Part shown: positions 46,953 to 64,000 of the stretch, piece after piece
How the letters are laid out: each line of letters starts with the position of its first letter
Position numbering within the stretch: position 1 is the first letter of the stretch
IMG/VR virus record: IMGVR_UViG_3300046167_000884
Coordinates: 1 to 64,000 of that record
From: a virus
Direction: 5' to 3' (one strand)
DNA length: 64,000 bases
The notes under the pieces: model-generated
What the model was told of the DNA's origin: nothing
The model's database searches: none
The model's input: the letters and a program-made list of their open reading frames with translations, nothing else
Made by a program: the position numbers and the translations under genes

Positions 46953-47303
46953 ATGTCAAGTATTAAAGAAATTATTGGAAAAGGAGATGTTAAATTTACT
47001 GTAAAAGGAATTACTGAGTACCGAAGAGGTGGTGATGATAATGAGTATGGTGATTTCCCAAAAATATTTAGAATTAATGAAGAGGGTGATGCTATTTTTG
47101 AAGATTCACGTTTATTTAGTAGAGGAATGAATGTTACCAAATTAGGCCCTACTTGTATTACATTGTATGATTACAATATGTTAGGTAAAAAAACAGTAGG
47201 TAAAATTAGTTATAAAGATATTACAATCTTGAACGAGGTTAAAGACATTCCAGGTTTCGAAGGAACATTAGAAGCATTAAACGAACTTACAATTTTAAAA
47301 TAA
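46953..47303 (+). CDS. Hypothetical early protein, 116 aa
   Basis: AAGGTT-ATG start after the promoter. Confidence 0.65.
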   Translation: MSSIKEIIGKGDVKFTVKGITEYRRGGDDNEYGDFPKIFRINEEGDAIFEDSRLFSRGMNVTKLGPTCITLYDYNMLGKKTVGKISYKDITILNEVKDIPGFEGTLEALNELTILK

Positions 47304-47308
47304 GAGTT

Positions 47309-47422: not shown

Positions 47423-47432
47423 AATAAAGGTT

Positions 47433-47888
47433 ATGAAAAAAATAGTATATTTACACGGCTTAGAAAGTGAAGCAGGAGGTCCAAAAGTATCTTTCCTTGC
47501 TGAAAAAGGTATGGTTTATGCTCCTGCTATGAATTATGAAAGCTTAAACTTACATGAATTTATCCTTACTTTAGGTATGCCCGATTTAATTATTGGATCT
47601 AGTATGGGTGGTTATGTTGCCGATGTTATAGGTTCAAGATTAGGAGTAGATGTTTTATTATTTAATCCTGCTTTACATAACAGATCAATCCCAGTAAATC
47701 ATGAATATTATGGTGAAACTTATAAACGTACAATTGTTTTAGGTACTGAAGATAATGTTATCAATCCTGAAATAACTAAAAATTTATGGTCTGTTCATGG
47801 TAATGTAGCAATACATGATGAGATAGAGGGTATGGGTCATAGAACGCCACTTGATGTTTTTATTAATATGTATAATAAACATGCTTAA
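47433..47888 (+). CDS. Alpha/beta hydrolase, YqiA/UPF0227-like esterase
   Basis: YLHGLES, GSSMGG nucleophile elbow, LFNPAL, GTED and GMGH; start placed at the AAAGGTT-ATG (47433). Confidence 0.8.
   Translation: MKKIVYLHGLESEAGGPKVSFLAEKGMVYAPAMNYESLNLHEFILTLGMPDLIIGSSMGGYVADVIGSRLGVDVLLFNPALHNRSIPVNHEYYGETYKRTIVLGTEDNVINPEITKNLWSVHGNVAIHDEIEGMGHRTPLDVFINMYNKHA
47866..47875 (+). promoter_or_regulatory. ATATGTATAA, one-mismatch variant of the late motif, heading the L-x-E gene block
   Basis: 15 nt upstream of ATG 47891, followed by TAAA as in other copies. Confidence 0.4.
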
Positions 47889-47890
47889 TT

Positions 47891-48436
47891 ATGATTAAAT
47901 TAATAGATCTATTAAATGAGATAGATATCCCTAAGAACAAATGGGTTACTATTCCTGCCTCAGAACTAAAAGACTATAGTGAAGAAATTTATAAGTTAAT
48001 TGATAATGCTTATGCACCAATTGGCGGTCATCCTAACTATAAATCCGCGGGTAATGTATCAGGTAGTGAATCTGATGCAGAATATGAAATAATTGATTTA
48101 GACGATGACCCTGAAATTGATGCAGTATCCGCTTCTAAACTTAAAGCCGCAGGTAAAAAATTTACAGCAACAGGACATGATGGGTCTAAACCAGCTAAAT
48201 CCAGTGTTGTAAATCATAAGGCAAATCAATTAAAATCTGGAGGATATTATGTTGAAGTATCAGGTGTAATAAAAGATATTTTTAAAGCTAAAGGTGTAGA
48301 AGCTATTAACGATGAAGAACTAGTACGTAAAGTACTTAAAGGAAAAGAAATTGAGTGGCTAGGTAATGGCGAATATAAAAGAACAATTGGTGGTAAATTA
48401 TTTACCAAAGCATTAATGGGAAAACCAACAGTATGA
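47891..48436 (+). CDS. Hypothetical protein with MIKLIDLLNE leader
   Basis: ORF track; short amphipathic leader ending in L-x-E. Confidence 0.7.
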   Translation: MIKLIDLLNEIDIPKNKWVTIPASELKDYSEEIYKLIDNAYAPIGGHPNYKSAGNVSGSESDAEYEIIDLDDDPEIDAVSASKLKAAGKKFTATGHDGSKPAKSSVVNHKANQLKSGGYYVEVSGVIKDIFKAKGVEAINDEELVRKVLKGKEIEWLGNGEYKRTIGGKLFTKALMGKPTV

Positions 48437-49230
48437 TAAGTTTAGTACAATTATTAAGAGAAGCACAAGGTAACCCAAAAGCGGTTATCTTAGCAGGAGC
48501 ACCTGGAGCAGGTAAAGGATATATTTTACGTGGTTTAGACTTAGGAGGTCTAAAAACAATGAATGTAGATGATATCTATGTTCCTTTACTAAAAAAAGCT
48601 AACGTTAGTTTAGATTTAAAAAACGCTACACCTGAAGAAAGAAGTGAGCAAGCCAAACAAATGGCCGCAGCTAATAAACAATTTAAAGGTGAATTAGAAC
48701 AAGTAATAGCAGGTAAAGAATCATTTATATTAGATGGTACAGCAGCTTCATTTAAAAAAACAGCAGAATTAAAATCAGAACTAGAAGAAGCAGGATATGA
48801 TACATTTATGCTTTATGTCTATACAGATTTAGAACGTTCGTTAAGTCAAAACCAAGATAGATACGTAAAATCAGGAGGTGAAGATAGAAGTTTAGCACCT
48901 GCAATTGTAATGCGTACTTGGAAAAGTGTAACAGATAATTTACCTAAATATGAAGAATTATTTGGTAATAATTTTGTAGCAGTAGCTAATACATTAGATG
49001 ATAGAATGCAAGATATAGATAAAATTATACAAAAATATCTTAAACCATTTACACCTCAAGGTACTAAACCTAAAACCCCAGCTCAGCAAAAGAAATCTGA
49101 TGAACGAAAGGCTAAGGACAAAGAAGAAATTCAAGCTATGTTAGATGATGATTTTATATATGATGTAATTGAATATACTATGTCTAAGGAAGAGGCACAA
49201 ATGAGATTAAAACAATTCTTATCTAAATGA
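48433..49230 (+). CDS. P-loop kinase (AAA_33/zeta-toxin/PNK-like) with MISLVQLLRE leader
   Basis: AVILAGAPGAGKGY Walker A, NVDD, ILDGT and lid Arg motif. Confidence 0.75.
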   Translation: MISLVQLLREAQGNPKAVILAGAPGAGKGYILRGLDLGGLKTMNVDDIYVPLLKKANVSLDLKNATPEERSEQAKQMAAANKQFKGELEQVIAGKESFILDGTAASFKKTAELKSELEEAGYDTFMLYVYTDLERSLSQNQDRYVKSGGEDRSLAPAIVMRTWKSVTDNLPKYEELFGNNFVAVANTLDDRMQDIDKIIQKYLKPFTPQGTKPKTPAQQKKSDERKAKDKEEIQAMLDDDFIYDVIEYTMSKEEAQMRLKQFLSK

Positions 49231-50909
49231 GTTTAGTAAACGAATTAATTAAAGGGTTATTACCTGAAGAAGAAAAAAAGAAGGTAGTGGCAGTATATGG
49301 TGGTGGTTTTAAACCACCCACATCTGGTCACTTTGAAGTTGTAAAACAAGCACTTAAAGAAAACCCCGAAATAGATGAATTTATTATCTTAATAGGTGGT
49401 AAACCAAGAAATGGTATTACACCTGATGAATCTATTTTAATTTGGGATATCTATAAAACATACTTACCATTTAAAGTTGAAGTAAAATACACATCAGTAC
49501 CTCCTATAAAAGGTATTTATAATTATGCCAAAGAACACCCAGATGAAGAAGTATTATTCATTATAGGTGCTAGAGAAGGTAATGAAGAAGATTTTAAAGA
49601 TATAGCATCTAGAACAACAACATTGGATAAATATCCAAATTTAAATTTACGTACCATTGTAACACAAGGTGGTGTTTCAGGTACAGCTGCTAGAAATGCT
49701 TCTAAAATATCATTAGATAAATTTAAACCCTTTGTTCCATCTGAATTATCAGATGAAGAAATAGAGCAAGTATATAATATAGTAGCAGATAAAATACAAG
49801 AAAATAACCCAGAGGATGGCAAGGCTGCTCCTTATGGTTCCGGATATAAAAAACTAAAAGAAAACGCATCATATTCTCAAAATATAGATGTAATGGAAAA
49901 AATAGCTCAATTAACCAATCATATGATTGATAAGGGTATGAATATTGAACCATTACCTACTATGGAATTTATAGACGGTGATTCAGAAAATGCTAAAGAC
50001 TTTTTTGGTAAAACAGCATATTACGATCCAAACAGAAAACATATAGTATTATACACTGAAGGTAGACACCCTAAAGATATAGTACGTTCGTATGCACATG
50101 AAATGATCCACCATATCCAAAATCTAGAGGGTAGATTAGGTGATATTTCAACTACAAATACACAAGAAGACGATAAACTAAATGATATTGAAGCGGAAGC
50201 TAACCTAAAAGGCACAATGACATTTAGAAATTGGACGGATAGTTTAAATGAAGCAATCGTAGGTGAAAAAATCGAATGTGATAATTGTGGTTGGAGCTGG
50301 AATATAGTAGACGGTGGAGATGATTTATTTATATGTCACAAATGTGGGCACGATAATACACCAATAAATGAAAAGAAAACTAAAGACCCGTTTGGTATAA
50401 ATGCATATGCAATGGAATTAGGAAGGTTACGTGAAGAAGAAACAGAATATAAAATATACTGCGATATGGATGGCGTAATAGCAGATTTTGAACGTGGTTA
50501 TGAAGAATTAACAGGTATAGATTTACAAGGTGAATTTAAACCTGAAGGAAAAGAGTTTTGGGATCCTATCTCTAAAGCAGGAGTTGGATTTTGGGCTGGT
50601 TTAAAATGGATGCCTGATGGGCAACAATTATGGGATTATATTAAACCCCATAAACCAAAATTATTATCTGCACCTTCACGTGAACAAACTTCTAGAATAG
50701 GAAAACACGTTTGGGTTAAACATAAAATACCTGGTACAAAATTAATATTAAGGTATGCTGATAAAAAGAAAGAATTAGCTTCACCAACATCAATATTAAT
50801 AGATGATAGAATGGTAAATATAAAAGACTGGGAATCCGCAGGAGGGATTGGTATATTACATACTAGTGCTGCTAATACTATTAGCCAATTAGAAAAATTA
50901 GGTTTATGA
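49227..50909 (+). CDS. Multidomain protein: HIGH-type nucleotidyltransferase + HExxH zincin-like domain + Zn ribbon + HAD (NT5C-like) nucleotidase
   Basis: GGFKPPTSGH; RSYAHEMIHH; CDNC..CHKC; IYCDMDGVIADF...ILIDDR. Confidence 0.8.
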   Translation: MSLVNELIKGLLPEEEKKKVVAVYGGGFKPPTSGHFEVVKQALKENPEIDEFIILIGGKPRNGITPDESILIWDIYKTYLPFKVEVKYTSVPPIKGIYNYAKEHPDEEVLFIIGAREGNEEDFKDIASRTTTLDKYPNLNLRTIVTQGGVSGTAARNASKISLDKFKPFVPSELSDEEIEQVYNIVADKIQENNPEDGKAAPYGSGYKKLKENASYSQNIDVMEKIAQLTNHMIDKGMNIEPLPTMEFIDGDSENAKDFFGKTAYYDPNRKHIVLYTEGRHPKDIVRSYAHEMIHHIQNLEGRLGDISTTNTQEDDKLNDIEAEANLKGTMTFRNWTDSLNEAIVGEKIECDNCGWSWNIVDGGDDLFICHKCGHDNTPINEKKTKDPFGINAYAMELGRLREEETEYKIYCDMDGVIADFERGYEELTGIDLQGEFKPEGKEFWDPISKAGVGFWAGLKWMPDGQQLWDYIKPHKPKLLSAPSREQTSRIGKHVWVKHKIPGTKLILRYADKKKELASPTSILIDDRMVNIKDWESAGGIGILHTSAANTISQLEKLGL

Positions 50910-51484
50910 AACAAAAAGTAACAGGGTTAAAAAAAGAATTTCAAGAAAAAGATGTTGAACGTTTAAGGAATTTAATAACGGGAAAACATGGTAATAAAAC
51001 ACGTTCGAGTGTTGGTTTTTCTAAAGCTGATGAGTTTTATGCCGAGGGTGATATTTGGGAAGCAGATGGTCGTACTTGGACAATCAAAGAAGGGATTAAA
51101 CAAAACATTACAAAACTAGATAAAGCTAAAAAGGCACACGTTATGCCTTTACTTTGTCCCTGTTGTAAAAAAGTAATGAAAAAGCGCAATGATAAACCTA
51201 CTTATAATTTACATAAAAAATGTTTTGACTGTGTTGCTCTGATGGAACATGAAATCAAAATCTCAGGTAAATGGGAAGAGTATACTCACAATTTACATAA
51301 CCAACAGATTGACCATACTTTAGAAGAATTTAAAGTTTTTGTAAAAGAAAAACTTGAAGAATCAAATGATTCTTTTGTATCTGAAGATGGAGATGTTGAA
51401 AAATGGGTTGGTAAACTGGATAAAGAAAAAGTAGATGAATATATGAATTCTGTAATAAAATATGCTAGGGCACTTAAAAAGTAG
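50906..51484 (+). CDS. Hypothetical protein with a Cys cluster (CPCC...HKKCFDC)
   Basis: ORF track; motif visible. Confidence 0.65.
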   Translation: MKQKVTGLKKEFQEKDVERLRNLITGKHGNKTRSSVGFSKADEFYAEGDIWEADGRTWTIKEGIKQNITKLDKAKKAHVMPLLCPCCKKVMKKRNDKPTYNLHKKCFDCVALMEHEIKISGKWEEYTHNLHNQQIDHTLEEFKVFVKEKLEESNDSFVSEDGDVEKWVGKLDKEKVDEYMNSVIKYARALKK

Positions 51485-51490
51485 TTTTGC

Positions 51491-51500
51491 ATATTTATAA
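51491..51500 (+). promoter_or_regulatory. ATATTTATAA motif
   Basis: 14 nt upstream of ATG 51515. Confidence 0.55.
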
Positions 51501-51514
51501 TAAAATACCTAACC

Positions 51515-52615
51515 ATGAAAGATAATTTTGACCTTTATTCTTGGAATAAAAATCGTTATTTAGAAAAAGAACATAAATCTAAGGATACTAAAGAAAAAGA
51601 TTTTGATTTACGTGAATGGAATAAGAAAAGATATTTAGGTGAACTAGATATTAATACTGCAGGAGGTGAAACTAATGTAGATAATATAGATGTAACCCAT
51701 GGTGGAGATGATCCTAAAATTGGTGCAGAATTAGAATCAGATGCCAATGTAGTAGGAGAAAATAAAGATTATTTAGAAAGCCTTGCCTTAAACCTCACAC
51801 AAGCACACCCAGATTTAGAATTTGAAGTTAGTAACTTTGATGATGTAAGAGTTTATGGTTCTCAAAGTGATTTAATGAAGTTTGGAAATAAAATGCATGG
51901 TAAAAAATTTGGAGAATATGAAGTATTTCATGTAGAAGATGATGATAGAGGAGAAATTGTTCGAATAGTTAAATCAGATAGCATTTTAAGAAATTTTGAA
52001 AATTTAAATGAAGCAAGTTATATGTACAAAGGATATAAAGATAAACACTTTGATATTTGCCCAGGAGCTGAAGCATTAAGAGATAGATTATTAGCTGGTG
52101 AATTTAAAGATAATAATTGGGCTACAGGAACTAATTTTGAAAAAGAAGTAGGTGAATGGCTTTACCAACATGACGTAATATTTGGTATTGAAAAAAATAT
52201 TATAAAAGATAAAGAAGGTGATGAAAATGATATAGCTAAAGCTAAAGAAGCTGAAGGTAGAGTTGTTAACTTATCTCGTGATTTAGGTATTCCGGCTTCT
52301 GAAATAAATGCTTATCTTCCTGCTCATATTAAAACCATTAAAGATATGGTTGAGTATAGTTCATTAACTGAAAGCATTAAAGAAACACTTCGTTTTATTA
52401 AAGAACACAATCCAGATTTTACTAACGAAGAAATTAAATCTGAATTAAAAGAACTTAAAGAATTAGGCAAGCAATTAAACGAAAAACTTTGTAAAAAAGG
52501 CGAAGCATATCGTAAACGTAGAATGGCTGCAGGTGAAAAATCATCAGCTTATTTATCTGGTCGTGCTGTTAAAGTATGTAAAGGTCAAATGAGTGGTAAA
52601 AAAAAGAAAAAATAA
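51515..52615 (+). CDS. Modular protein with a doubled leader (DNFDLYSWNKNRYLE / DFDLREWNKKRYLGE) and basic C-terminal module
   Basis: ORF track; internal LNE/LTE junctions. Confidence 0.7.
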   Translation: MKDNFDLYSWNKNRYLEKEHKSKDTKEKDFDLREWNKKRYLGELDINTAGGETNVDNIDVTHGGDDPKIGAELESDANVVGENKDYLESLALNLTQAHPDLEFEVSNFDDVRVYGSQSDLMKFGNKMHGKKFGEYEVFHVEDDDRGEIVRIVKSDSILRNFENLNEASYMYKGYKDKHFDICPGAEALRDRLLAGEFKDNNWATGTNFEKEVGEWLYQHDVIFGIEKNIIKDKEGDENDIAKAKEAEGRVVNLSRDLGIPASEINAYLPAHIKTIKDMVEYSSLTESIKETLRFIKEHNPDFTNEEIKSELKELKELGKQLNEKLCKKGEAYRKRRMAAGEKSSAYLSGRAVKVCKGQMSGKKKKK

Positions 52616-53310
52616 TGGGTACATTTGATTTAAAAAAATATATTTCTGATAATCCTTTGCTAAAGGAAGAAATTTTAACTGAAGTAAGTGATGCTGATAT
52701 TGTTAAAGCTTTAGCTAAAGTAGTAGACATGGAACCTAAAGATGTTGTAGCTAAAATAAAGGCAGATAAAGAGGAAGTAAATGAAATAGCAATTACAACC
52801 GCTATCACTATTGCAGGTCTTCTTCCAGCGGTTATGGAATTAGTAGGTGGTGCTTTTAATAAAGCTAAAAATTCTTTTAAATTAAATGATAAAGAAAAAA
52901 CAGAATATTTAGCATTACAACAATTCTACAAGGAAGCAAAAGATAAAGATGAAAAGAAAAGACTTAAAAAAGAAATGGAACCCTATGAATCTAAAATAGG
53001 AAACTGGTTTAAAGATGCAGGGCATTCTTTACACAAAGCTTATACTTGGCCTATTAGAAAAATGTTAAACTTGGCTGGAACCTTTTCTTCTAAAGATTCT
53101 CCTTTAAAGGATAAAGAAAAAGTAGAAAAAATAGCTAATGTTATTTATGCTACGGCAATGATAGGGATAGCAGGGTATGGAGTTGCTTCTCACCTAGGAC
53201 ATTTAAAAGGCGTATCAGATGTAGCTATTACTATTGCAGATTCTATTAAAGGAGGTAAAAGTATAAAAGATGCTGCCTTAGGTGGTTTAGAATTACTTGG
53301 TTTATTATAA
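52615..53310 (+). CDS. Leader-bearing protein (MGTFDLKKYISDNPLLKEE) with hydrophobic helices
   Basis: IAITTAITIAGLLPAVMELVGG and VIYATAMIGIAGYGVA segments. Confidence 0.7.
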   Translation: MGTFDLKKYISDNPLLKEEILTEVSDADIVKALAKVVDMEPKDVVAKIKADKEEVNEIAITTAITIAGLLPAVMELVGGAFNKAKNSFKLNDKEKTEYLALQQFYKEAKDKDEKKRLKKEMEPYESKIGNWFKDAGHSLHKAYTWPIRKMLNLAGTFSSKDSPLKDKEKVEKIANVIYATAMIGIAGYGVASHLGHLKGVSDVAITIADSIKGGKSIKDAALGGLELLGLL

Positions 53311-53585
53311 TGACACAAGACAAACTAACAGAAAGAATACAAGAATCACTACGTGATTGGTTTAAAAAAGAAGATTGGGTTAGAATCAATACTTCAGGTA
53401 ATATTTCTGGTAAATGTGGCACAATGAAAAAAGGTAAAGCTACAACAAGATGCTTGCCTAGAAAGAAAGCACAATCACTTACTAAAGCAGAGCGTAAAGC
53501 AACTGTAGCCAAAAAAGTACGTGGTAGTAAAAAGGGTAAACAGTTTGTGAAAAACACAGACAAAGCTGAATTTAAAAAGAAATAA
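53310..53585 (+). CDS. Small basic protein (IQESLRDWFKKEDWV...CLPRKKA)
   Basis: ORF track; Lys-rich. Confidence 0.65.
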   Translation: MTQDKLTERIQESLRDWFKKEDWVRINTSGNISGKCGTMKKGKATTRCLPRKKAQSLTKAERKATVAKKVRGSKKGKQFVKNTDKAEFKKK

Positions 53586-54344
53586 ATGAGATTATTATAT
53601 CTATTATTTATACTACTTTTCACAAGTTGTGGAGTTGGATTTCAATACACAACACTAAATCATGCTGGTCACATTGACGGCATTTATTCATCTAATGATT
53701 ATAAAATAGATACATTAAATGAATTTCAGGTAAGAAATAAACTAAGAACAGATTTTAATTTTAGATACGATATTGCACAATATGCTTTATCCCAACCAGC
53801 TTCATTTGATTGGAATAATAGGTTACTAGGTAACAGATATAATTGGAATAGACCTTACTGGGGCTATAGTTACTATTGGAATAGAACTCAAATGTGGAAT
53901 GATTGGGCTTGGGGATACCCTTATTCGAATTGGGGATATAATAACTGGCATAGTTGGAATAGGCCTTATTGGGGTTGGAATAATTCTTGGTGGAATAATT
54001 GGGGTTGGAGACAACAAATGAATGATTATGCTTGGATATATAGGAATAGGTCTAATACTGTTCGTATAAATGGTTATAGAACTTTTAATAGAACATCTAC
54101 TCGTACTGTTGTAAATAACACAAATAGAAGAACAACCCCTTCAGTTAATGTTAATAATAACAATAGAACTATTAAAGTAAACAAACCAAGGGTTAATTAT
54201 AACTCTAAACCAAGAATTAATACACCTAGAGTAAGAGTTAATACTCCTCCTAGGCAACCTTCAACAATAAGAACAACTCCACGTATTTCTACTCGATCTA
54301 CTAACAATACTACTGTAAGAAGCAATTCTAGGAGAAAAAACTAA
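53586..54344 (+). CDS. Lipoprotein with W/N/Y/G-rich low-complexity core and R/T/N/P-rich tail
   Basis: MRLLYLLFILLFTS-C lipobox; composition directly visible. Confidence 0.7.
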   Translation: MRLLYLLFILLFTSCGVGFQYTTLNHAGHIDGIYSSNDYKIDTLNEFQVRNKLRTDFNFRYDIAQYALSQPASFDWNNRLLGNRYNWNRPYWGYSYYWNRTQMWNDWAWGYPYSNWGYNNWHSWNRPYWGWNNSWWNNWGWRQQMNDYAWIYRNRSNTVRINGYRTFNRTSTRTVVNNTNRRTTPSVNVNNNNRTIKVNKPRVNYNSKPRINTPRVRVNTPPRQPSTIRTTPRISTRSTNNTTVRSNSRRKN

Positions 54345-54353
54345 TATTTATAA
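54344..54353 (+). promoter_or_regulatory. ATATTTATAA motif
   Basis: 16 nt upstream of ATG 54370. Confidence 0.55.
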
Positions 54354-54369
54354 ATAAAAATATACACTA

Positions 54370-55308
54370 ATGGACAACTTTAATTATCAAGCTTATATCA
54401 AAAGTGGTAGAATCCACGGAGAAAAAGCGATTTTAACCGAATCAGAACAAGTTTCTGAAAAAAAATACAAGCAAGGATATGACGATAGAGAAGATGAATC
54501 TCTAGGCGATCGTACTGGTGCTGAAAAAGGCAAGAAACAATCTATGAAAGACCGTAGAGATGATTCTTATGGAAAATTTGGCAAACGTGATGCTGAAAAA
54601 AAGGGCAAAAATAAAGTCAACAAAGAAAGCCTATCAGAAACTATTGCTGAAGCTAAAGCTAAAATTGACGAGGGTTCTTACCCATTTGATCAATGCTTGG
54701 CTGATAATGAAGGTAAATATGGTAAAAAAGGTGCTGCCAAAGTATGTGGTGCTATTAAAGCCCAATACGGTGAAGGTCAAGTAAATGAAATGGATGAAGT
54801 TTCATGGAATGATAAAAACAACCCAACCAGAAGTGATTCAGTAGGCGAAAGAGATCCTAAAAAAGTAGGCCAATCTACAGCAGCATACTCAGTAAATGAA
54901 GACGCTCGTACTGATGCTGAACAAGAAGGATATAAAGATGGATTTGAAGATGCTAAAGATGATATTGAAGGAGTATTAAAGAAAATGAAAGTATCTGAAC
55001 TTAAAGATAAAATTAAAACTGAAATTGTAAGTGCACTATCAGAAGCTGAAGAAGAAGTAGACGTTGATGTAGATGTTGAAGACGAAGTTGAAGTAGAAGC
55101 AGGTGCTGATGATATTGAAATCGAAAGACCAGGAGTTAAAACAACAGTAGATGTTGGACTATCTCCAGAAGAGGAAATTGTTCAAGATTCTTTAAAAGCT
55201 GCAATGGATGCTGCAGAAGCTTTAGGTAGTCAAAAATTAGCAGATCAAATTGGTAATACAATTACTTTCTTTACAAGACAATTTGTAGTAGGTGATAATA
55301 CTGATTAA
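54370..55308 (+). CDS. Highly charged modular protein with MDNFNYQAYIKSGRIHGE leader (possible prohead core/internal protein)
   Basis: Leader variant; LTE/LSE/VNE junctions; acidic DVDVDVEDEVEVE tract. Confidence 0.65.
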   Translation: MDNFNYQAYIKSGRIHGEKAILTESEQVSEKKYKQGYDDREDESLGDRTGAEKGKKQSMKDRRDDSYGKFGKRDAEKKGKNKVNKESLSETIAEAKAKIDEGSYPFDQCLADNEGKYGKKGAAKVCGAIKAQYGEGQVNEMDEVSWNDKNNPTRSDSVGERDPKKVGQSTAAYSVNEDARTDAEQEGYKDGFEDAKDDIEGVLKKMKVSELKDKIKTEIVSALSEAEEEVDVDVDVEDEVEVEAGADDIEIERPGVKTTVDVGLSPEEEIVQDSLKAAMDAAEALGSQKLADQIGNTITFFTRQFVVGDNTD

Positions 55309-55311
55309 TAC

Positions 55312-57942
55312 ATGCTTAACGAACGTAAACTTACGGAAAGAGAACTAGATAAACGTGCTGAAGCAATTCAGGGTTTGTTGTCCAATAAACGTACGCTAGT
55401 TAAAAAGTACGGTAAGGATGCGGAAAAAGTTATGTATGGTATTGCAACAAAACAAGCTAAATCAAAAGTAGAAGGCATGAATAAAGATAAAATTAAAGAA
55501 TTAATCCAAACAGTATTGCAAAAAGAAGAAAATGATAACATTGATGTTGCCTTTTCTGGTGTAGCTGATTATGGTGAAGAAGATAAAGCATTAGGTCGAG
55601 AAGATGAACTTGAAATGAAAGGTTTAGAAGAAGGTCATGGTTTAGATCAAGGTGATTTAGATACTCTAGAATCACTTAGAAATCAAATAGAACAAGGAAT
55701 ATTAGATAAAAAAAATCGAATCAAATTCGTTAAAGTTCTTGATTTTTTAATTAAATCAAACATATTACAAGATAAAACAAAAGATTTATCTATTAAAGAA
55801 GGGAATTTCAATGCTGGCTTTGACCAATTTGTAGCTATTATAGATAATAGAGCAAAACAATCCAATAGATCACCTAAAGAAGAAGCAGAAGACTTAATTG
55901 ACGATCTTAGATTACATTATGGTATAGATGCATTTTATGAGTCTTTAAACGAAGCTCTCAACCCAGAAGTATCCCAAGCAGTAAATCGTTTTATTAAAGC
56001 AATGGCTAAACGATATAGCTACAGCGAACAAGATGCTGTATTTGCTATTATGGCTGCTTTAAAACAAAGAAAATTTGATGGTTTAAATGAAGATCTAGAT
56101 GTAGGACATCAAGACAACGAACCTCACATGCTTAAAAAAGAATTAGCTAGAGCAGGTCAAATGATACAAATGCTTTATAGAGCAGTAGATAATTACGATG
56201 GTCAGGGTGAAGTAGATTTTCCACAATGGTGGCAAGCCAAAATTATCAAAGCAAACTCTATGTTAGATAGTGCTTTTGATTATTTGGATGGTGAAGAAAT
56301 GGTAGCTAAAATAGATGCTATGATTGATGGAGCAGATAAAGTTGAAGTAGATATTGATGTAGTTAATGAAGATGAAGTACAAAAAAGACTTGATGCCGAA
56401 AAAGCAATTAAATCAACACTTAAAGATGAAGGTGGAGCTGCTGGTTTAGAACCATTAGCAAAAGCTGTAAAAAAATTAGGTATTAGTAAAGATGAACTAC
56501 TTAAAATGATTAAAAAAGTAGTTGGTGTTGCTAAACATAAACATGGAGATTATATTTCAACCCCAATAAATGAAATTGACTACGATGAAGCTTTAACCTT
56601 AAGGGGTATGTTAGCTGATTTAAAGAAAGAAAGAGAGCAATTATTTAGAGACATGGAGCAAGAAGCTGAACCAGAAGGTGGGCCAATTGCTGATAGATAC
56701 GGTGATGAATTAAATAAAATTGAAGACCGTATGTACCAAATTGCTAAACAACTTCGTGATTATGATATGAACGAAGGAGTAAATGAAATAGGTATGTTTC
56801 ATGACCCTCGAATGTCAAGTGGAAACTTTGATCATTTAACTCCTGATCCAAAAGAAGACCAATTAAAAACCGCTTACGCTGCTTTAGAAAAAGCAGAAAA
56901 AGACGGTGATATTAGAAAACAAGAATTAGCTTTAGCTGCTATTGATCTTATCAATGGTAATATTAACGAAGAATCATCAGATGTATTCTTAGATGACATT
57001 GCACAAATGATGTTTAGTATGGATTATGATCAATTATCCCCACTAGAACAAGAAACGGTTAGAGATGAGGCAGAAAGACAAGATCCAGGAGATATGTCTC
57101 ACCAATTTCAATATTATGATGATGAAGATGAATCACTAAACGAAGCAATGGATGGTGGTCAATTATTTGACTACTTTAAGTCTAAAGGATACGATATAAC
57201 AGAACGTAGACCAGATGGATATCCACCTAAAGAAGGAGTAGAAGGATACCAAGTAAATAGAGGTAGAGGTAGATACCCTCAATCAGTAATATTTCAGTAT
57301 AATAAAGATACTGACGAATTTACCATCAGTAGGATGAGTGGTTATAGAATCGATGAAAAAGATGCTATAAAAGCTGGGATGAGAGAAGCAGGCCGTTCAG
57401 GAGCAGCTGGTATGGATTCTTACATGACAGATGGAAATTACACACCAGTAGATATTTCAGCCGAAGGTTTAAAAGATATAGTTGACCACGTAATGACTGG
57501 TTTAGATAGAGAAAGTAAAGCACAATCAGATTTTTATCGTGCTAGAGGGCGTACATCAGGTACTATAGATGAAAAAATAGCTACTGCAGTTAGAGAAAAA
57601 TTAACTAAATCATCATCAGTAGAAGACCATGTTGAAGATTTTAAAGATTCAGATGCACCTCAATTTAAAGGTAAATCATTAGAAAAAATTAAACAAATGG
57701 CTTTAGCATCATTTTTACAAAAACAAGGTAAGAAAAAAGTATCTGAAGTTAAAGATAGTAGAAAGAAAAAAGAATTCAAAGTAGGTGATAAAGTAACATA
57801 CTTAGGACACCCAGGTGAAATTACTAAAGTTAATAAAGAAATGACTGGTGTTATTACCTATAATGTATCATATGATAAAGGTAATGGTAAAACAAAAGCA
57901 TCAAACATCTATAATAAAGGTGGTGAAATAAAAACTGTATAA
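55312..57942 (+). CDS. 876-aa acidic modular polyprotein-like protein
   Basis: Short unrelated segments separated by LNE/INE/VNE/MNE. Confidence 0.7.
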   Translation: MLNERKLTERELDKRAEAIQGLLSNKRTLVKKYGKDAEKVMYGIATKQAKSKVEGMNKDKIKELIQTVLQKEENDNIDVAFSGVADYGEEDKALGREDELEMKGLEEGHGLDQGDLDTLESLRNQIEQGILDKKNRIKFVKVLDFLIKSNILQDKTKDLSIKEGNFNAGFDQFVAIIDNRAKQSNRSPKEEAEDLIDDLRLHYGIDAFYESLNEALNPEVSQAVNRFIKAMAKRYSYSEQDAVFAIMAALKQRKFDGLNEDLDVGHQDNEPHMLKKELARAGQMIQMLYRAVDNYDGQGEVDFPQWWQAKIIKANSMLDSAFDYLDGEEMVAKIDAMIDGADKVEVDIDVVNEDEVQKRLDAEKAIKSTLKDEGGAAGLEPLAKAVKKLGISKDELLKMIKKVVGVAKHKHGDYISTPINEIDYDEALTLRGMLADLKKEREQLFRDMEQEAEPEGGPIADRYGDELNKIEDRMYQIAKQLRDYDMNEGVNEIGMFHDPRMSSGNFDHLTPDPKEDQLKTAYAALEKAEKDGDIRKQELALAAIDLINGNINEESSDVFLDDIAQMMFSMDYDQLSPLEQETVRDEAERQDPGDMSHQFQYYDDEDESLNEAMDGGQLFDYFKSKGYDITERRPDGYPPKEGVEGYQVNRGRGRYPQSVIFQYNKDTDEFTISRMSGYRIDEKDAIKAGMREAGRSGAAGMDSYMTDGNYTPVDISAEGLKDIVDHVMTGLDRESKAQSDFYRARGRTSGTIDEKIATAVREKLTKSSSVEDHVEDFKDSDAPQFKGKSLEKIKQMALASFLQKQGKKKVSEVKDSRKKKEFKVGDKVTYLGHPGEITKVNKEMTGVITYNVSYDKGNGKTKASNIYNKGGEIKTV

Positions 57943-57944
57943 TA

Positions 57945-58415
57945 ATGACTAAAGCAGAATTAAGACAAAAAATTAAGACATTAGCAGTTACTGTTATGGC
58001 TGAAAAAGCTAAAACTGATGATGCTGCCTTAGCTTATGATGAATTAGTTAAATTTCCAGCTTTAAAAGATATTATAGTGGATCTATTAACTGATCAATTT
58101 GATTCATTTTTAGAATCAGTAGATTGGGTAGCTCCACGTCCTACAACTTTTCGTATAAATTTGTTGAATGGTGAAAATTTCTTACTTATGTTTACGGACA
58201 GAAGTTGGATAGGACAAGTACAAGGAAAAAAATATTATTTACTAAATCTCGATGAGGAAGAAAGATGTGCTCTAGCGATTAACAGACTTCTAAGAGTAGG
58301 ACCCGCTAGTGGTGCTGAAATGGAGGGAGAAGCAAGTGAAACTGATACAACAACAGACACAGCTGATACCGAAGTTGAAGATGAAGTAGATGTTGATGTA
58401 GACGTAGAAGCATAA
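57945..58415 (+). CDS. Hypothetical protein with acidic C-terminal tail
   Basis: ...VEDEVDVDVDVEA terminus. Confidence 0.7.
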   Translation: MTKAELRQKIKTLAVTVMAEKAKTDDAALAYDELVKFPALKDIIVDLLTDQFDSFLESVDWVAPRPTTFRINLLNGENFLLMFTDRSWIGQVQGKKYYLLNLDEEERCALAINRLLRVGPASGAEMEGEASETDTTTDTADTEVEDEVDVDVDVEA

Positions 58416-58424
58416 AATAAAATA

Positions 58425-59735
58425 ATGAGTATATTCGATAAATTTTTTACAAAATTCGCTTACAAATTCGACAAAGGATATCCTGACATGAATAATGATC
58501 AGGATGTTTTGTTGTTGGAGTCACTTATTAGTGAAGTATTAGGTGAAAGATATAGTTTAGAAGAAGCTAATATGGTTGGATCCGCTACAAATTATCCTTC
58601 TGTTACTGGGACTTGGGAAAAATATATTGAAAACCCACTATCTAAACATGAAGACGGAAAAACAACTTATACTGCAATAAAAACATCTCCAGTATGGATT
58701 AAAACTCCATCAAATAATATTGAAAAAACAGATGTAATAGTAAATGTAAATGATACGTTTACTATTAGTTCTAGGTCTACTGATGATTTAATAAAAAAAG
58801 GAAGTTCTTATTATGCTCCTATTAATTATAAAGGAAAGGAATACTATTTCCCCTTTAATGCTATACTAAAACCTACAGGCAAAAATGTCCAAAAATTTGA
58901 ACCTAATTTAGATTCTAAAAATGACCCATCAGTTTATCATGCCTTCACCCCAGGCCATCCACAAGAAGCAAATATTGCAATGTTATTTATTGAAAAAACA
59001 TCTCCTGATTGGGAATTTGAATATAAAGGAAAATCATTAAAAGTAATATATTTAGGTGATCCTAATGTTAAAAGTACTGGTTATCCTAAAAATGATTTAC
59101 AAATTAATACTGAACCTGCCCCTGAAGGTTTAGATTCTTCAATGAGGATTAGTTTAAAAGCAGATAATGCTACTTACGTAGAGAATTGGATGACTTCTAC
59201 TAGAGCAGAACAGATATTAGGTGATACCAAAGTAAAAGAAATTGTTTTAGGAGCATATAATGCTTTATTAAAATCAACACCACCTAGATCTGGTAAAGGT
59301 TTATTTAAAGGAACCCTTAAATCATATCAAATTTGTATGTTTATTAAAGACAAACAACCACCGTATGGATCAGAAGCACCTTCAATACTATCAGAACCCC
59401 TATCTAAAGATGAGGCATATGAAGCTTATACAGGGGATAAAAAGTTTGGGGATACTGATGGGTCAGCTAATTATTTTTATAAAGGAGGAAAACCAAAAAC
59501 AACAACAGAATTTCTGGGAGATTTAAAACCATTCAAAGATAATATGGATAATTTATCAGATTTATGGGTTTCTTTAAGGGGATCTAATGAATCAGGTAAA
59601 GGAAGAAGTAGAGTATTTTATTGGGAAGGAAAAGATGATGATCCAAATGGAAAATGGATTATAAATCCATTATGGGCAGAAATAGCTGGGATAACCAAAT
59701 CAGAAGATAAAGAAGGTAATATAAAATATAGTTAA
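58425..59735 (+). CDS. Leader-bearing protein with a possible PD-(D/E)XK restriction-endonuclease-like domain
   Basis: Leader ending in LLLE...SLEE; QEANIA...PKNDLQI...RISLKAD fits E...D...(x)SLK catalytic spacing. Confidence 0.45.
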   Translation: MSIFDKFFTKFAYKFDKGYPDMNNDQDVLLLESLISEVLGERYSLEEANMVGSATNYPSVTGTWEKYIENPLSKHEDGKTTYTAIKTSPVWIKTPSNNIEKTDVIVNVNDTFTISSRSTDDLIKKGSSYYAPINYKGKEYYFPFNAILKPTGKNVQKFEPNLDSKNDPSVYHAFTPGHPQEANIAMLFIEKTSPDWEFEYKGKSLKVIYLGDPNVKSTGYPKNDLQINTEPAPEGLDSSMRISLKADNATYVENWMTSTRAEQILGDTKVKEIVLGAYNALLKSTPPRSGKGLFKGTLKSYQICMFIKDKQPPYGSEAPSILSEPLSKDEAYEAYTGDKKFGDTDGSANYFYKGGKPKTTTEFLGDLKPFKDNMDNLSDLWVSLRGSNESGKGRSRVFYWEGKDDDPNGKWIINPLWAEIAGITKSEDKEGNIKYS

Positions 59736-59744
59736 TATTTATAA
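59735..59744 (+). promoter_or_regulatory. ATATTTATAA motif
   Basis: 9 nt upstream of ATG 59754. Confidence 0.55.
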
Positions 59745-59753
59745 TAAAACAAT

Positions 59754-60938
59754 ATGTGTAACTGCGGATGTAATACTTGCGAAACTAAAACAAAAGGACC
59801 TTTACTTACTGAAAGTAAAGTTAAATCTTTATTATCCGAAGGTCTACAATATCACATAGATAAAAAAATACCATTATTTGAAACAGTATATCGTATTGGT
59901 TCAGATAAACATCTAGCCTTAATTAAAGAAGCTAGAAAAATGTATTCACGTAACATAATTGATTTATGTGAAGATGATGAAGCACTAATTAAAACACATT
60001 TAGGTGAATTTGCTTTATATGAAGGTGAATCTGTACCATTAGATTTACCTATGTTAAATGAATCAGATTCTAACTATCCAGATTTTGATTTAAATAAAAA
60101 CATAAGATACAAAGATACATCTATTTCAAGCGGAATGTGGAGATATACAGGTCAAGAACAAGGTGGAAAAGGCGTTTATAGAAATTTAAATAATGATCAA
60201 ATATTAGCTTTTGATAGAAGTGATTTTGATATATTTAAAAACAATCTTGGTAGTCATTTTGATATTTCAGAATCATTAAATGAATTTTCATTACCTAAAT
60301 TTGATGTAGTAAAACCTATTATTGATAAATTTTTAGGTGGGATAGAAAAAGCTGGTAAAAAACTATTACAAATAGTTAAACGAGAAGGTAAACAGACTTT
60401 AGTATTAATTAAAGAAATAGCCGAATACGTAGTAAGTGGAGAAAAACCAACATCATCTGAACAGAAAAAAATTACAGAACAATTAAAGGATTTAGGTTTT
60501 TTAGCTTTTTTAGGAATAGCAGGTAATATTCCTTTTTCATTATTTTCTATAATTTATTTTATAATAGATGAATCAGGCATAGCTAAAGAATTTTTAAAAT
60601 TAAATGAGTCATTAAATGAAGATGAACAATTAGACGAAAAGAAAAAGGCTAAGAAAAAAGAAAAAAAAGACCCACCATTAAATAAACCAAAACGTGGTGG
60701 TTCTAAAGCATATTATGTTTATGTACGTGATCCTAAAACTAAAAAAATTAAAAAAGTATCATTTGGATCCGGTGGTTTAAGAGCTAAAATTAAAAACAAA
60801 GAAGCTCGTACTGCATTTGCCGCTAGACATAATTGTAAAAATAAAAAAGATAGAACTAAAGCAGGATATTGGTCATGTAATTTACCAAGATACGCTCCAG
60901 CATTAGGATTAGGTGCTAAAATGAATACTTTTTGGTAG
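59754..60938 (+). CDS. Modular protein: CNCGCNTC N-terminus, LNE-bounded inserts, basic C-terminal domain (AARHNC...AGYWSC)
   Basis: ORF track; motifs visible. Confidence 0.7.
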   Translation: MCNCGCNTCETKTKGPLLTESKVKSLLSEGLQYHIDKKIPLFETVYRIGSDKHLALIKEARKMYSRNIIDLCEDDEALIKTHLGEFALYEGESVPLDLPMLNESDSNYPDFDLNKNIRYKDTSISSGMWRYTGQEQGGKGVYRNLNNDQILAFDRSDFDIFKNNLGSHFDISESLNEFSLPKFDVVKPIIDKFLGGIEKAGKKLLQIVKREGKQTLVLIKEIAEYVVSGEKPTSSEQKKITEQLKDLGFLAFLGIAGNIPFSLFSIIYFIIDESGIAKEFLKLNESLNEDEQLDEKKKAKKKEKKDPPLNKPKRGGSKAYYVYVRDPKTKKIKKVSFGSGGLRAKIKNKEARTAFAARHNCKNKKDRTKAGYWSCNLPRYAPALGLGAKMNTFW

Positions 60939-60939
60939 T

Positions 60940-61212
60940 ATGAAAATAGATATATTTAATGAAATACACTGGTTAAATTTTAGGAAATTACCTGAAATTC
61001 AACCTTTATCATTAAATGAACAAGTAAAAAAATACAACCTTTACATAAATGAACTTACGTATGAACGTAATGTATATTTACATTGGTTAGAGGGACATAA
61101 AAAAGGTCCTAAAAGAACAACTCTTCAAGAAACAGGTTTTTTATTGCAAGAGGATTTATTTGATTTAGAACAAGAAAACGGAAGTAAAATTTTAATAACA
61201 GGATATGCCTAA
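60940..61212 (+). CDS. Hypothetical protein ending in the FLLQED...EQENGSKI motif
   Basis: ORF track. Confidence 0.55.
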   Translation: MKIDIFNEIHWLNFRKLPEIQPLSLNEQVKKYNLYINELTYERNVYLHWLEGHKKGPKRTTLQETGFLLQEDLFDLEQENGSKILITGYA

Positions 61213-61720
61213 TTTACCTATTTCAGGATTACCAGCTTCATCTACATTACAAGGAGATGAATTATTTGCCGATGTACAAGGTGGTGTAACTAAATATACT
61301 ACTTTAGATGATGTAACAAGCTATGTAAGTGGCTCAATTGAAGTCTATAATCAAACTAACCCTAATAACTCATATATAGTTCCCGTAACTTTAACAGTTG
61401 AAAAAGGAGATACAATTAATTTATCAGATACTGTATATCAAAATGCTTCTATGATTGAATTATCATGGAGTGGAGAGACTAACCCAGATGTAACTCTAAA
61501 TCTTCCAGATGCAACAAATGCTAATAATACTTATAGAACAATAAGATTTATTTCTGATTCAACCTTTATCAATTCTAGTCATCATGTTGATTTAACTCCA
61601 ACAGGAGGTCAAACATTAGATGGAAGTACAAACCCTTATGTAATAAATAAAGCATATGAAGGTATTATGGTATGGTCAGATGGAGCAGAATGGTTTATAA
61701 TACAGAAAAAAGCTGGATAA
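61205..61720 (+). CDS. Probable virion decoration/fibre-like protein
   Basis: MPNLPISGLPASSTL...D start and C-terminal beta-rich ...LDG...WSDGAEWFII, resembling fibre/decoration domains. Confidence 0.5.
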   Translation: MPNLPISGLPASSTLQGDELFADVQGGVTKYTTLDDVTSYVSGSIEVYNQTNPNNSYIVPVTLTVEKGDTINLSDTVYQNASMIELSWSGETNPDVTLNLPDATNANNTYRTIRFISDSTFINSSHHVDLTPTGGQTLDGSTNPYVINKAYEGIMVWSDGAEWFIIQKKAG

Positions 61721-61968
61721 TGAACCCATACAAAAATAAAGGTAACATAAGAACGTTTTCGAAAGATGTAAATAAACTAGAACTAGTTTGGCATCAAGAC
61801 GCTGAAGATAGAGATATCGAAGTATTAGAAGGCAAAGGATGGGAATTACAAATGGATAATGAATTACCCTTTGAATTAGTAAAGGGAGATCGTATATTTA
61901 TAACAGAAGGTAGAATACACCGAATATTAAAAGGCATAACAGATTTAAAAATAAAAATAAATGGATAA
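61720..61968 (+). CDS. Small cupin-like protein
   Basis: Start at the TAATG overlap (MNPYKNKG...); WHQDAEDR...GDRIFITEGRIHRILKG. Confidence 0.65.
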   Translation: MNPYKNKGNIRTFSKDVNKLELVWHQDAEDRDIEVLEGKGWELQMDNELPFELVKGDRIFITEGRIHRILKGITDLKIKING

Positions 61969-62254
61969 CTTTAATTTAAGAAAATATTTAGCTGAAGGAA
62001 AATTACATGAAGAACAAGTAATGGGATATGCTGTACTTATAAATGGTAAATTCTATAATAATAAAGTATACAAATCAGAATCAGTAGCTAATGGACAGTT
62101 AACTACATTACTAGGTGATGTAAAAAGTGAATTAGGTCTTGAAGGTGGAAGAAAAGATCAATATTATTTTGGTACTAAAAAAGGAGATAAAGATTTAGAA
62201 CAACGTTTAAAAGATTTAGAACAAGCTAAAGTAGTAGCTGTAACCTATAAATAA
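61961..62254 (+). CDS. Leader-array gene 1 (MDNFNLRKYLAEGKLHEE + unique body)
   Basis: Shared 18-aa leader. Confidence 0.8.
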   Translation: MDNFNLRKYLAEGKLHEEQVMGYAVLINGKFYNNKVYKSESVANGQLTTLLGDVKSELGLEGGRKDQYYFGTKKGDKDLEQRLKDLEQAKVVAVTYK

Positions 62255-62260
62255 AAATAA

Positions 62261-62902
62261 ATGGATAACTTCGATTTAAAAAAATATTTAGCTGAAGGTC
62301 GCTTATTTAAAGAAGAAATAGACTACCCATCTATTAAAGATGAAATGAAAAAAATATATGATATAGATGTAGATCTAGATACCATTAAAGATTTTGTTAC
62401 ATCATATAATGATAGTGAGGGTATGGATGTATTTGATACAACGGAACGAGAAGATTTTTATTTATATTTAAAAGATTTAGCTGAAGGCCTCTTATTTGAA
62501 GAAGAACAATGGTTTGATCCCTCTAGCCCTTCACACGGTAAAGGATATAAAGTATTAGGCGATAAACCACAAGAAGGTGCTTTTTATGTAAGTGGATATG
62601 ATTTTGATAATGATAAAAGCTTTGAATATTATGTACTTGATCCTAATTATAATAAATACCTTACTGCTACCCAAGAATTATTAGGTCTTGCTGATGAACA
62701 GGGACACGAGTATGAAAGTATAGAACAGTATTATGATACAGTTAAAGCTTTTCAAAATGATTTAAGATCTTATGCTAAAGGAGGTAAGTTCGAAGGTGAT
62801 GAGGTACCTAATTGGCTTATGCAAGATCTTGCTATGAGTTTTGGAACTGATTATGACCAATTTTATAGTGATGATGAAGACGAAGACGAAGACGATTATT
62901 AA
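62261..62902 (+). CDS. Leader-array gene 2 (MDNFDLKKYLAEGRLFKEE), with a second internal leader copy
   Basis: Internal LYLKDLAEGLLFEEE at 62462-62506. Confidence 0.8.
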   Translation: MDNFDLKKYLAEGRLFKEEIDYPSIKDEMKKIYDIDVDLDTIKDFVTSYNDSEGMDVFDTTEREDFYLYLKDLAEGLLFEEEQWFDPSSPSHGKGYKVLGDKPQEGAFYVSGYDFDNDKSFEYYVLDPNYNKYLTATQELLGLADEQGHEYESIEQYYDTVKAFQNDLRSYAKGGKFEGDEVPNWLMQDLAMSFGTDYDQFYSDDEDEDEDDY

Positions 62903-62920
62903 AAATAAAATTAAAATAAA

Positions 62921-63472
62921 ATGGATAATTTCGATTTAAAAAAATATTTAGCTGAAGGAAGACTATTTGAAGAAGATTTTAAAAATCCAATTCTAGATAA
63001 ATATTTAGAACTAAAAAAATCAGTAGATAACAATACAGCTTTTGAGTATGAACTATCAGATTTTATTAATGGTTTAGATAATACTGAACGTGAGGGATTA
63101 GAAAGCGATTTAGGATTAGAAAGAGATGAGTTATATGAAGGTCGCTTATTAAAAGAAGAGATAATGGTTGACACCACTATTATGTTTGGTGGTAATGACT
63201 ATATTAAAGATGTACTTACATCACCTGATGATTTTGGCTTTGATGAAGAAGATGCTGAATGGATTAAAAGTAATATTTTAACTGCTCCTAAAATGGTATC
63301 TATTGAAGATTACATGGCTTTAGAGGATAAGTGGGTAGAACAAGCAGATTTAGATGTTGGAACAGGAGCAGATCGTGAGTCTGTTCTAGATGCTATTGAT
63401 GTTCATATTAAACAAGGATTAATAACTCCTGAAGAAGGAGAAGAAGCTAAAAAAATAGCACTAAAATTTTAA
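62921..63472 (+). CDS. Leader-array gene 3 (MDNFDLKKYLAEGRLFEE), with an internal half-leader
   Basis: Internal LYEGRLLKEE at 63131-63160. Confidence 0.8.
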   Translation: MDNFDLKKYLAEGRLFEEDFKNPILDKYLELKKSVDNNTAFEYELSDFINGLDNTEREGLESDLGLERDELYEGRLLKEEIMVDTTIMFGGNDYIKDVLTSPDDFGFDEEDAEWIKSNILTAPKMVSIEDYMALEDKWVEQADLDVGTGADRESVLDAIDVHIKQGLITPEEGEEAKKIALKF

Positions 63473-63477
63473 AATAA

Positions 63478-63789
63478 ATGGATAACTTTGATCTAAAAAA
63501 ATATTTAGCTGAAGGTAAATTATATGAACAAAAATCTCCTAAATTTAAAATAGGTGATTTTGTTCAACCTAAAAGCCGAGATAAATATGTAGGCCAAATT
63601 GAAGATGTTTATATTAATAAACCTGAAAATTTAGAAATAAAAGATGGTGAATATGTTTATTCAGTTGATAAATTAAATCACAGAGGAAAAGATGCAATGT
63701 CATTTGATTTTAAAGAATCAGATTTAGAATCAATATCTGACCCAACTGAATATATAAAAAGTTTAACACCATATAAAAGAAGAAACTAA
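63478..63789 (+). CDS. Leader-array gene 4 (MDNFDLKKYLAEGKLYEQ + SH3/KOW-like body)
   Basis: PKFKIGDFVQPK...GQIEDV...YVYSV...FKESDLE. Confidence 0.8.
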   Translation: MDNFDLKKYLAEGKLYEQKSPKFKIGDFVQPKSRDKYVGQIEDVYINKPENLEIKDGEYVYSVDKLNHRGKDAMSFDFKESDLESISDPTEYIKSLTPYKRRN

Positions 63790-63790
63790 A

Positions 63791-64000
63791 ATGGATAATT
63801 TCGATTTAAAAAAATATTTAGCGGAAGGCCGCTTATTAAAAGAAGAATTAACTTTTTCTTTTGACGAATATAGCTATGAAATTGATGATGATGCCTATCA
63901 AGCAGAAGTAGAGGCAGGTATTAAAACTCAATTACCAAACATCTCAGATAAAGTTTTACAAGCAATCATAGATAGTTCTGTAGAATACTATTATGATCAA
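63791..64000 (+). CDS. Leader-array gene 5 (MDNFDLKKYLAEGRLLKEE...), truncated by the window end
   Basis: Hand-translated; open to base 64000. Confidence 0.8.
   Translation, partial: MDNFDLKKYLAEGRLLKEELTFSFDEYSYEIDDDAYQAEVEAGIKTQLPNISDKVLQAIIDSSVEYYYDQ

Follow-up and report, generated by a model that had tools for sequence, protein, structure and literature searches.

A candidate capsid-cargo locus with protease-type motifs at module joints in a T4-like Flavobacteriia phage

In the IMG/VR virus record IMGVR_UViG_3300046167_000884, a locus that runs from ~47.9 kb to ~65 kb and continues to 68 kb is probably a capsid-cargo locus of a T4-like phage of Flavobacteriia. Short N-terminal leaders would target its products to the prohead core, and a gp21-type protease would trim the leaders and separate the modules of the longer chains; we consider this reading probable. 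We analyzed the first 64 kb of the 120,008-bp phage contig (64,000 nucleotides, called the window below), so that the locus extends past the window. The sequence has ~30% G+C, with nearly all genes on the + strand, and the sole cultured relatives are the ~160-kb Flavobacterium phages vB_FspM_immuto (immuto below).

The reading is built on a three-residue motif, [LIVM]NE or more broadly [LIVM]xE, which is in excess in particular genes, is conserved at joints between protein modules, and ends many of the leaders. The features of the locus in the window are as follows (aa, amino acids; a slash follows the Glu of a candidate site).

46953..47303, + strand: 116-aa protein just upstream of the start of the block described originally (47891); three [LI]NE sites, 0.13 expected
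47891..48436, + strand: 181-aa orphan protein; 10-residue leader MIKLIDLLNE (Leu8, Glu10)
48433..49230, + strand: Zeta-toxin-like P-loop nucleoside triphosphatase (NTPase; Pfam Zeta_toxin, E = 1.2e-16, from residue 11); 10-residue leader MISLVQLLRE directly before the P-loop
49227..50909, + strand: 560-aa multi-module protein; leader MSLVNE/LIKGLLPE/; joints E192, E212, E342, E382, and E403
51515..52615, + strand: 366-aa protein behind a putative late promoter; two degenerate FDL..Y..E leader copies; LNE166 and LNE323
54370..55308, + strand: 312-aa head-scaffold paralog (BLASTP); MDNF-type leader; putative late promoter at 54344
55312..57942, + strand: 876-aa multi-module protein; leader MLNE/; [LIVM]NE also at residues 214, 260, 353, 421, 488, 492, 553, and 611
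57945..58415, + strand: 156-aa module, a free-standing gene here, fused to the C-terminus of the 841-aa immuto ortholog
59754..60938, + strand: 394-aa protein behind a putative late promoter; site-dense N-terminal block with seven [LI]xE in 90 aa
60940..61212, + strand: 90-aa protein; sites LNE27 and INE38
61961..64000, + strand: tandem gene array, continuing to ~64979 past the window; common leader MDNFDLKKYLAE/G.L..E/ on unrelated bodies
51491..51500, 54344-54353, 59735-59744, and 61894-61903, + strand: late-promoter-like motif ATATTTATAA

Enrichment of the motif

The genes from 46953 to 61212 contained 28 [LIVM]NE motifs in 4,848 aa (5.8 per 1000), compared to 37 in 31,171 aa elsewhere (1.2 per 1000). 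Expected counts, here and below, came from per-protein sequence shuffles, pooled or taken per gene. For these genes the pooled shuffles gave 4.6 expected motifs (z = 10.9), and the strongest single genes were 55312 (9 observed, 0.77 expected), 59754 (4 and 0.37), and 46953 (3 and 0.13). The remaining genome was not enriched (32 versus 25.3 expected). We observed that similar control motifs were all at background in the shuffles. These were the motifs with another last residue, [LIVM]ND, [LIVM]NK, [LIVM]NQ, and [LIVM]NN, as well as the reversed motif EN[LIVM], the motifs [FYW]NE, [AGST]NE, and [DEKRQ]NE, and the motif with shifted spacing, [LIVM]xNE.

The original prediction, made from the sequence of the window, had described a 16-kb block of proteins punctuated by such motifs and had named enrichment over the compositional background as a check. 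The enrichment is borne out by these counts, but not over the whole block. It was confined to a subset of about eight genes, among them 46953, 49227, 51515, 54370, 55312, 59754, and 60940, while 48433 (leader aside), 50906, 57945, 58425, 61205, and 61672 had none, and the block is therefore heterogeneous.

At the 28 sites Asn was coded by AAC in 10 cases and Leu by four different codons; the word TTA-AAT-GAA appeared at 8 of the 28 sites, no more often than codon usage predicts. Such synonymous variation means that selection is on the peptide and not on a DNA word; to judge from the codons, it acts at the peptide level on aliphatic-Asn-Glu. We also considered a DNA-level cause, in which TAAATG inside TTA-AAT-GAA would be a stop/start relic or a recombination word, and rejected it because the codons follow ordinary usage and the ends of inserts differ.

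In 77 related IMG/VR loci (L005-L081), whose sequences are related so that the counts are not independent, the same gene families were enriched and terminase and portal were not. For example, homologs of 51515 had 29 motif sites (5.5 expected) and homologs of 60940 had 11 (1.1 expected). A side observation from the same loci is an apparent avoidance of [LIVM]NE in terminase (0 versus 11.9 expected), portal (4 versus 10.2), the homologs of 57945 (1 versus 9.0), and the homologs of 65270 (3 versus 13.3). The shortfall in these four could reflect selection against the motif in proteins that need to stay intact.

Conservation of sites at module joints

The 560-aa protein combines at least two unrelated domains in one polypeptide. 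We predict in it an HxGH-type nucleotidyltransferase-like module, an HExxH module resembling metallopeptidases, a zinc ribbon of the CxxC type, and the deoxyribonucleotidase NT5C. NT5C occupies residues 405-559 (PHROG, E = 3.9e-23); the Pfam matches of the other modules were weak and sub-threshold, and the N-terminus was weakly CTP_transf_like. The HExxH motif (H291-E292-x-x-H295) was invariant in the family alignment (A2), with Pfam matches of this module all below the cut-offs (DUF6782, E = 0.009; Peptidase_M91, E = 0.03). In the same alignment, the joint glutamates E192, E212, E342, E382, and E403 were invariant or nearly so. We found that the longer members of the family had the same backbone with whole modules inserted at the joints, each insert ending in a motif of its own, as in ...LNE/[151 aa]...LKE/AIVGEK. 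NT5C, fused here after LRE403, is in immuto a separate gene with a leader ending in LLLE.

In the 876 family (120 homologs), the Glu at position P1 was nearly invariant at residues 4, 260, 421, 488, and 611, and the residue at P3 interchanged among L, I, V, and M. At the same five sites P2 varied, with N first, followed by K, S, D, and E. The alignment occupancy jumped exactly at 260, 421, 488, and 611; therefore, conserved blocks begin or end there. As far as these alignments tell, a conserved motif of cleavage type is present at the module junctions, namely at five joints in the 560 family and at five sites in the 876 family.

The AlphaFold model of the 876-aa protein had a mean predicted local distance difference test score (pLDDT) of 65, and segments with pLDDT<50 made up 27% of the chain. 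Six of the nine [LIVM]NE sites fell inside these segments (binomial p ~0.016); another was two residues past one of them, and the last two were in inter-helix loops. Thus, where AlphaFold domain boundaries had been proposed as a check on linker placement, the sites of this protein lie in low-confidence linkers, beside one, or in loops. When the model was compared with the PDB by Foldseek, nothing matched at E <= 0.001, and the only local matches were small and winged-helix-like. A separate observation concerns the module of residues 354-421 (56371-56574), between VNE353 and INE421, which is predicted to form three helices and a beta hairpin. Winged-helix DNA-binding domains were its only high-probability local Foldseek matches; the aligned range was not reported and the assignment is tentative.

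Exchange of modules at the joints was observed among relatives. In non-redundant counts, 12 of 18 insertions in the 560 family and 16 of 50 in the 876 family had [LIVM]xE at each of their two junctions, where the random rate per junction is ~0.15-0.17. In 12 related loci, the block of the 876 family that follows LNE611 (block D) stands at the start of genes of its own, preceded by one of three different leaders, and LNE always stands directly before its first conserved residue. Among the three leaders is MDNF..KYLAE, which belongs to the tandem array in the window; in loci L057 and L058 the tandem-array leader is joined to block D via GRLLNE/. The view of the long open reading frames as chains of segments joined at motifs is thus supported, with modules gained, lost, fused, and split at motif-bearing joints.

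The 394-aa protein had 17 [LI]xE sites (5.0 expected) and four LNE. After the N-terminal block comes a variable middle module, flanked by LNE103 and LNE177 and followed by a hydrophobic segment; further sites cluster at 273-295, and the C-terminal domain is basic and covered by PHROG 7595. Among 120 homologs of the family, LNE103 marks the end of the N-terminal block, and LNE177 is followed by the next one. We note besides that the Cys-rich start MCNCGCNTCE (59754-59790) is kept in relatives, followed by seven invariant [LI]xE within 90 residues.

N-terminal leaders

Of the 22 genes between 47891 and 64979, 11 had a [LIVM]xE ending within the first 13 residues, as did 6 of 7 head-module genes, compared to 17 of 111 other genes (15%; Fisher p = 8e-4 for the block and 2e-4 for the head module). 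The leader signal that had been described is therefore real, but not its presence in nearly every gene, and 6 of the 11 leader-bearing genes belong to one paralogous leader array. Members of this array (61961..~64979) resemble each other mostly in the first 19-38 residues only. Leaders of the MENFDLKKFLVE type are carried by immuto as well.

Relatives kept the leaders with motif-preserving changes, and leaderless genes remained leaderless. For example, MIKL.D..[NK]E was kept in 10 of 10 homologs of 47891 from related loci, and 93% of the homologs of 48433 (n = 44) kept a [LI]xE leader with K, R, T, or N at P2. The 47891 leader equals the T4 capsid-targeting sequence (CTS) MKTYQEFIAE in length and register. 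As for structure, residues 2-11 were helical in the weak AlphaFold model of the 560-aa protein, and residues 1-7 were unstructured in the 876-aa model.

Head module, protease, and late promoter

The head genes lie beyond the window, at the following positions of the contig.

68799: large terminase
70398: gp20-type portal
75338-75946: Peptidase_S77 (gp21-type) protease (Pfam PF03420, E = 4.5e-29; PHROG 207, E = 1.3e-57)
76125: acidic scaffold-like protein
77318: Gp23-type capsid protein

The gp21 protease of T4 cuts after L/I-X-E, and the internal proteins of T4 carry targeting propeptides of 10-19 residues (PMC9026906; see also PMC3012670). The assumption that a T4-type prohead protease is available was sound: the Peptidase_S77 gene is situated just outside the window, and the premise of cutting after (I/L)-x-E therefore applies to this phage. 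The protease aligns to T4 gp21 (PDB 5JBL) with E = 1.3e-15 and has His and Ser where the crystallized chain has Ala; from the numbering offset, these are presumably the catalytic residues that were mutated in the crystallized chain.

The propeptide of the capsid protein (62 distinct relatives) had invariant LLE8, LLE34, and ILE49 and a V56-x-E58 with variable P2. In the alignment, the first residue of mature T4 gp23* falls five residues before E58. The conservation pattern of the cargo joints is therefore also that of accepted substrates. A further observation on the capsid protein (L001:13318-14949) is a Gly-rich segment, EEMSTTGGGAG.., shared with a 211-aa head-module protein (L001:9201-9836, genome 73201-73836). 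In the capsid protein the segment directly follows the predicted maturation site, and in both proteins an aliphatic-x-Glu precedes it.

The motif ATATTTATAA was found genome-wide in 25 copies on the + strand and one on the - strand. Of the + copies, 23 were at most 45 nt upstream of a start codon, in zones that make up 6% of the sequence. The genes behind it include portal, head-core, tail, and baseplate genes as well as 51515, 54370, 59754, and 67439, and ATATTTATAA behaves as a promoter common to the block and the structural genes. The suggestion that a late-type motif heads the sub-operons held, with exact copies at 51491, 54344, and 59735 and a variant with one mismatch at 47866. A separate copy at 91444, followed by an ATG near 91479, makes a structural gene start in this part of the genome (91444-91500) probable.

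A further connection to the head genes is the paralogy of 54370, detected by BLASTP, with scaffold 76125 (E = 4e-21) and with head-module protein 74080 (E = 6.5e-14).

Proposed mechanism

The block products would be made late, alongside the head proteins. An N-terminal leader of 4 to ~18 residues ending in [LI]-x-E, an analog of the T4 CTS, would direct proteins or whole chains into the prohead core. There the gp21-type serine protease would cut after the Glu of each [LIVM]-x-E joint, with Asn preferred at P2. The leader would be removed, and the freed modules would remain in the head until they pass into the host together with the DNA. Only a short joint would be required, so that modules could be added, removed, fused, or split without loss of processing. 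The original prediction had the phage package polyproteins into the prohead and dice them into independent enzymes and peptides. What this implies for the sequences was observed; packaging, cutting by the prohead protease, release of independent enzymes, and delivery to the host are steps that we infer.

Several observations weigh against the proposed mechanism. Block [LIVM]xE motifs with non-Asn P2 were not in excess (83 versus 85 expected). Conversely, the head-core proteins were enriched for non-Asn P2 [LIVM]xE (77 versus 45.7) and not for LNE (4 versus 2.7). Because these P2 preferences differ, the two substrate sets look different; homologs of head-core gene 72354 in relatives were LNE-enriched (28 versus 6.5). 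Only about half of the block genes carry the leader or motif-excess signature. Three of ~7 conserved/variable boundaries of the 876 family (near 163, 341, and 811) are tied to no conserved site, and AlphaFold modeled the 560-aa protein too poorly (mean pLDDT 46.5, shallow alignment) for linker placement to be judged. A literature search found no virion proteome for immuto or other relatives. To our knowledge, a nucleotidyltransferase-like module and a deoxyribonucleotidase are not known as packaged enzymes.

We tentatively suggest a wider picture of plug-and-play capsid loading in marine Flavobacteriia T4-like phages. A few interchangeable leaders and a three-residue joint might let any module be loaded as cargo, which the head protease would free for delivery along with the DNA; the enzymes in this cargo might act in the host before phage gene expression, and proteins that must stay intact might avoid the motif. 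The cargo might comprise nucleotidyltransferase-like, deoxyribonucleotidase, zeta-like NTPase, and metallopeptidase-like modules, a list that we hold no more firmly than the picture itself.

If the chains are cut in the prohead, the T4 capsid-targeting principle extends from single small proteins to exchangeable multi-module chains. Abundant marine phages would then deliver a varied enzyme load with their DNA; the three families each have thousands of metagenomic homologs (>1,400 matches for the 876-aa family and >5,000 each for the 560-aa and 394-aa families). The rule of a leader plus aliphatic-x-Glu joints would allow virion cargo, and the ends of the mature proteins, to be predicted from sequence alone, and it points to a natural template for putting several proteins into phage capsids. 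Flavobacterium phage immuto with strain LMO8 is a cultured relative suited for direct tests.

Alternative explanations

It is unlikely, though it deserves some weight, that the motif is not cut at all. It would then be a conserved linker or domain cap, or a by-product of module shuffling, in proteins that work intact, packaged or not. Asn and Glu are common in linkers, and the motif does sit where insertions and deletions occur, as expected of a recombination junction; on the other hand, the codons of the sites vary as in ordinary usage, and the two ends of one insert often differ (LNE/LKE, LNE/IFE, ITE/LNE). The requirement is specifically for Glu, with Asp, Lys, and Gln at background, and the interchange at P3 with a fixed P1 is the pattern of a protease site. 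The same pattern recurs at the end of short N-terminal leaders, a place without any domain joint.

We give a smaller chance to the possibility that the joints are real and the cutter is another enzyme, with the HExxH zincin-like module of the 560-aa protein as the leading candidate; the cuts could be made in the cytoplasm or the head or following ejection. The specificity argues otherwise, since an aliphatic P3, any P2, and Glu at P1 is the published gp21 rule, the capsid propeptide bears the same pattern, and the 10-residue leaders have the length and register of the T4 CTS. Moreover, the 876-aa and 394-aa families and the leader-tagged single genes have no HExxH module. In favor of such a cutter are the invariance of HExxH in A2, a second HExxH module in immuto gp088 and some relatives, and the Asn at P2, which is unlike the head-core proteins of this phage. 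The metallopeptidase Pfam matches count for it by their presence and against it by being weak and below the cut-offs. Iyer et al. (2017, PMC5512222) also predicted that zincin metallopeptidases act on packaged phage proteins of several domains to process them.

An enrichment by composition or chance, conceivable in Asn/Glu-rich, AT-rich coding sequence of ~30% G+C in which Leu, Asn, and Glu are most often coded by TTA, AAT, and GAA, has a negligible probability and was rejected in view of the shuffles, the background level of the control motifs and of the rest of the genome, and the recurrence in the same families across 77 other loci.

Comparison with known systems

Earlier work has described the targeting sequences of T4, the specificity of gp21, polyvalent proteins, and, in giant phages, processing at several sites (PMC10052503). 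Searches of the available literature found no description of exchangeable modules joined by a prohead-protease motif.

A close parallel is with T4 IPI, IPII, IPIII, and Alt, where, as here, a gp21-family protease occurs together with short N-terminal propeptides ending in aliphatic-x-Glu. Two of the leaders in the window have exactly 10 residues with Leu8 and Glu10, as in MKTYQEFIAE. The T4 internal proteins likewise have one leader on unrelated, fast-changing bodies and are expressed with the head genes. Unlike in T4, the motif here also joins modules within one chain, there are several leader families, Asn is preferred at P2, the predicted cargo is of metabolic type, and the system is known from sequence. 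Pfam and PHROG scans of all 20 proteins showed no homology to T4 internal proteins or Alt.

Polyvalent proteins (Iyer, Burroughs, Anand, de Souza, Aravind 2017; PMC5512222) are likewise long, have unrelated enzymatic domains, occur in phages with portal and terminase (both present in this phage), and, by prediction, are packaged and then delivered along with the DNA. The candidate metallopeptidase-like module with HExxH in the 560-aa protein would be a further common feature, and immuto has a Pol-beta-type nucleotidyltransferase-like N-terminus. For polyvalent proteins, processing by the embedded zincin was predicted and no conserved joint motif was described (PMC5512222), whereas the joints here follow the prohead-protease rule, and a peptidase module is absent from two of the three families.

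In phiKZ, 201phi2-1, and SPN3US, many head proteins, including inner-body and ejection proteins, are likewise cut after Glu by a diverged gp21 homolog, some in multi-site propeptides (PMC10052503, PMC9026906). Unlike here, the motif is a different one (A-X-E in SPN3US), the cuts mostly trim N-terminal propeptides, and there is neither separation of tandem modules nor exchange of modules at joints. The proteins are unrelated to those of the window.

The T4 prohead core proteins gp22, gp67, and gp68 are site-dense and are cut to many fragments; 72354, scaffold 76125, the N-terminal block of 59754, and 54370 resemble them. The T4 proteins are disposable assembly proteins, whereas the long proteins here hold folded, enzyme-like modules between the joints.

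Other features of the window

Directly upstream of the block, at 47409-47888, is a gene for a 159-aa alpha/beta-hydrolase-like protein without a leader and without motif excess. In the middle of the block, 53586-54344 codes for a predicted lipoprotein, a misfit to the cargo pattern. Its signal peptide has the lipobox ...FTSCG at the end, and its body is of low complexity and very rich in Asn, Trp, and Arg.

The stretch 29667-40771 has ~47% G+C and many overlapping open reading frames on both strands, and contains highly repetitive, mutually similar fiber-like proteins (30740, 31795 with 1037 aa, and 35358). The idea that this stretch is bacterial chromosome with an rRNA operon was rejected: Rfam and tRNA scans gave zero matches, and the stretch encodes the repetitive fiber-like proteins.

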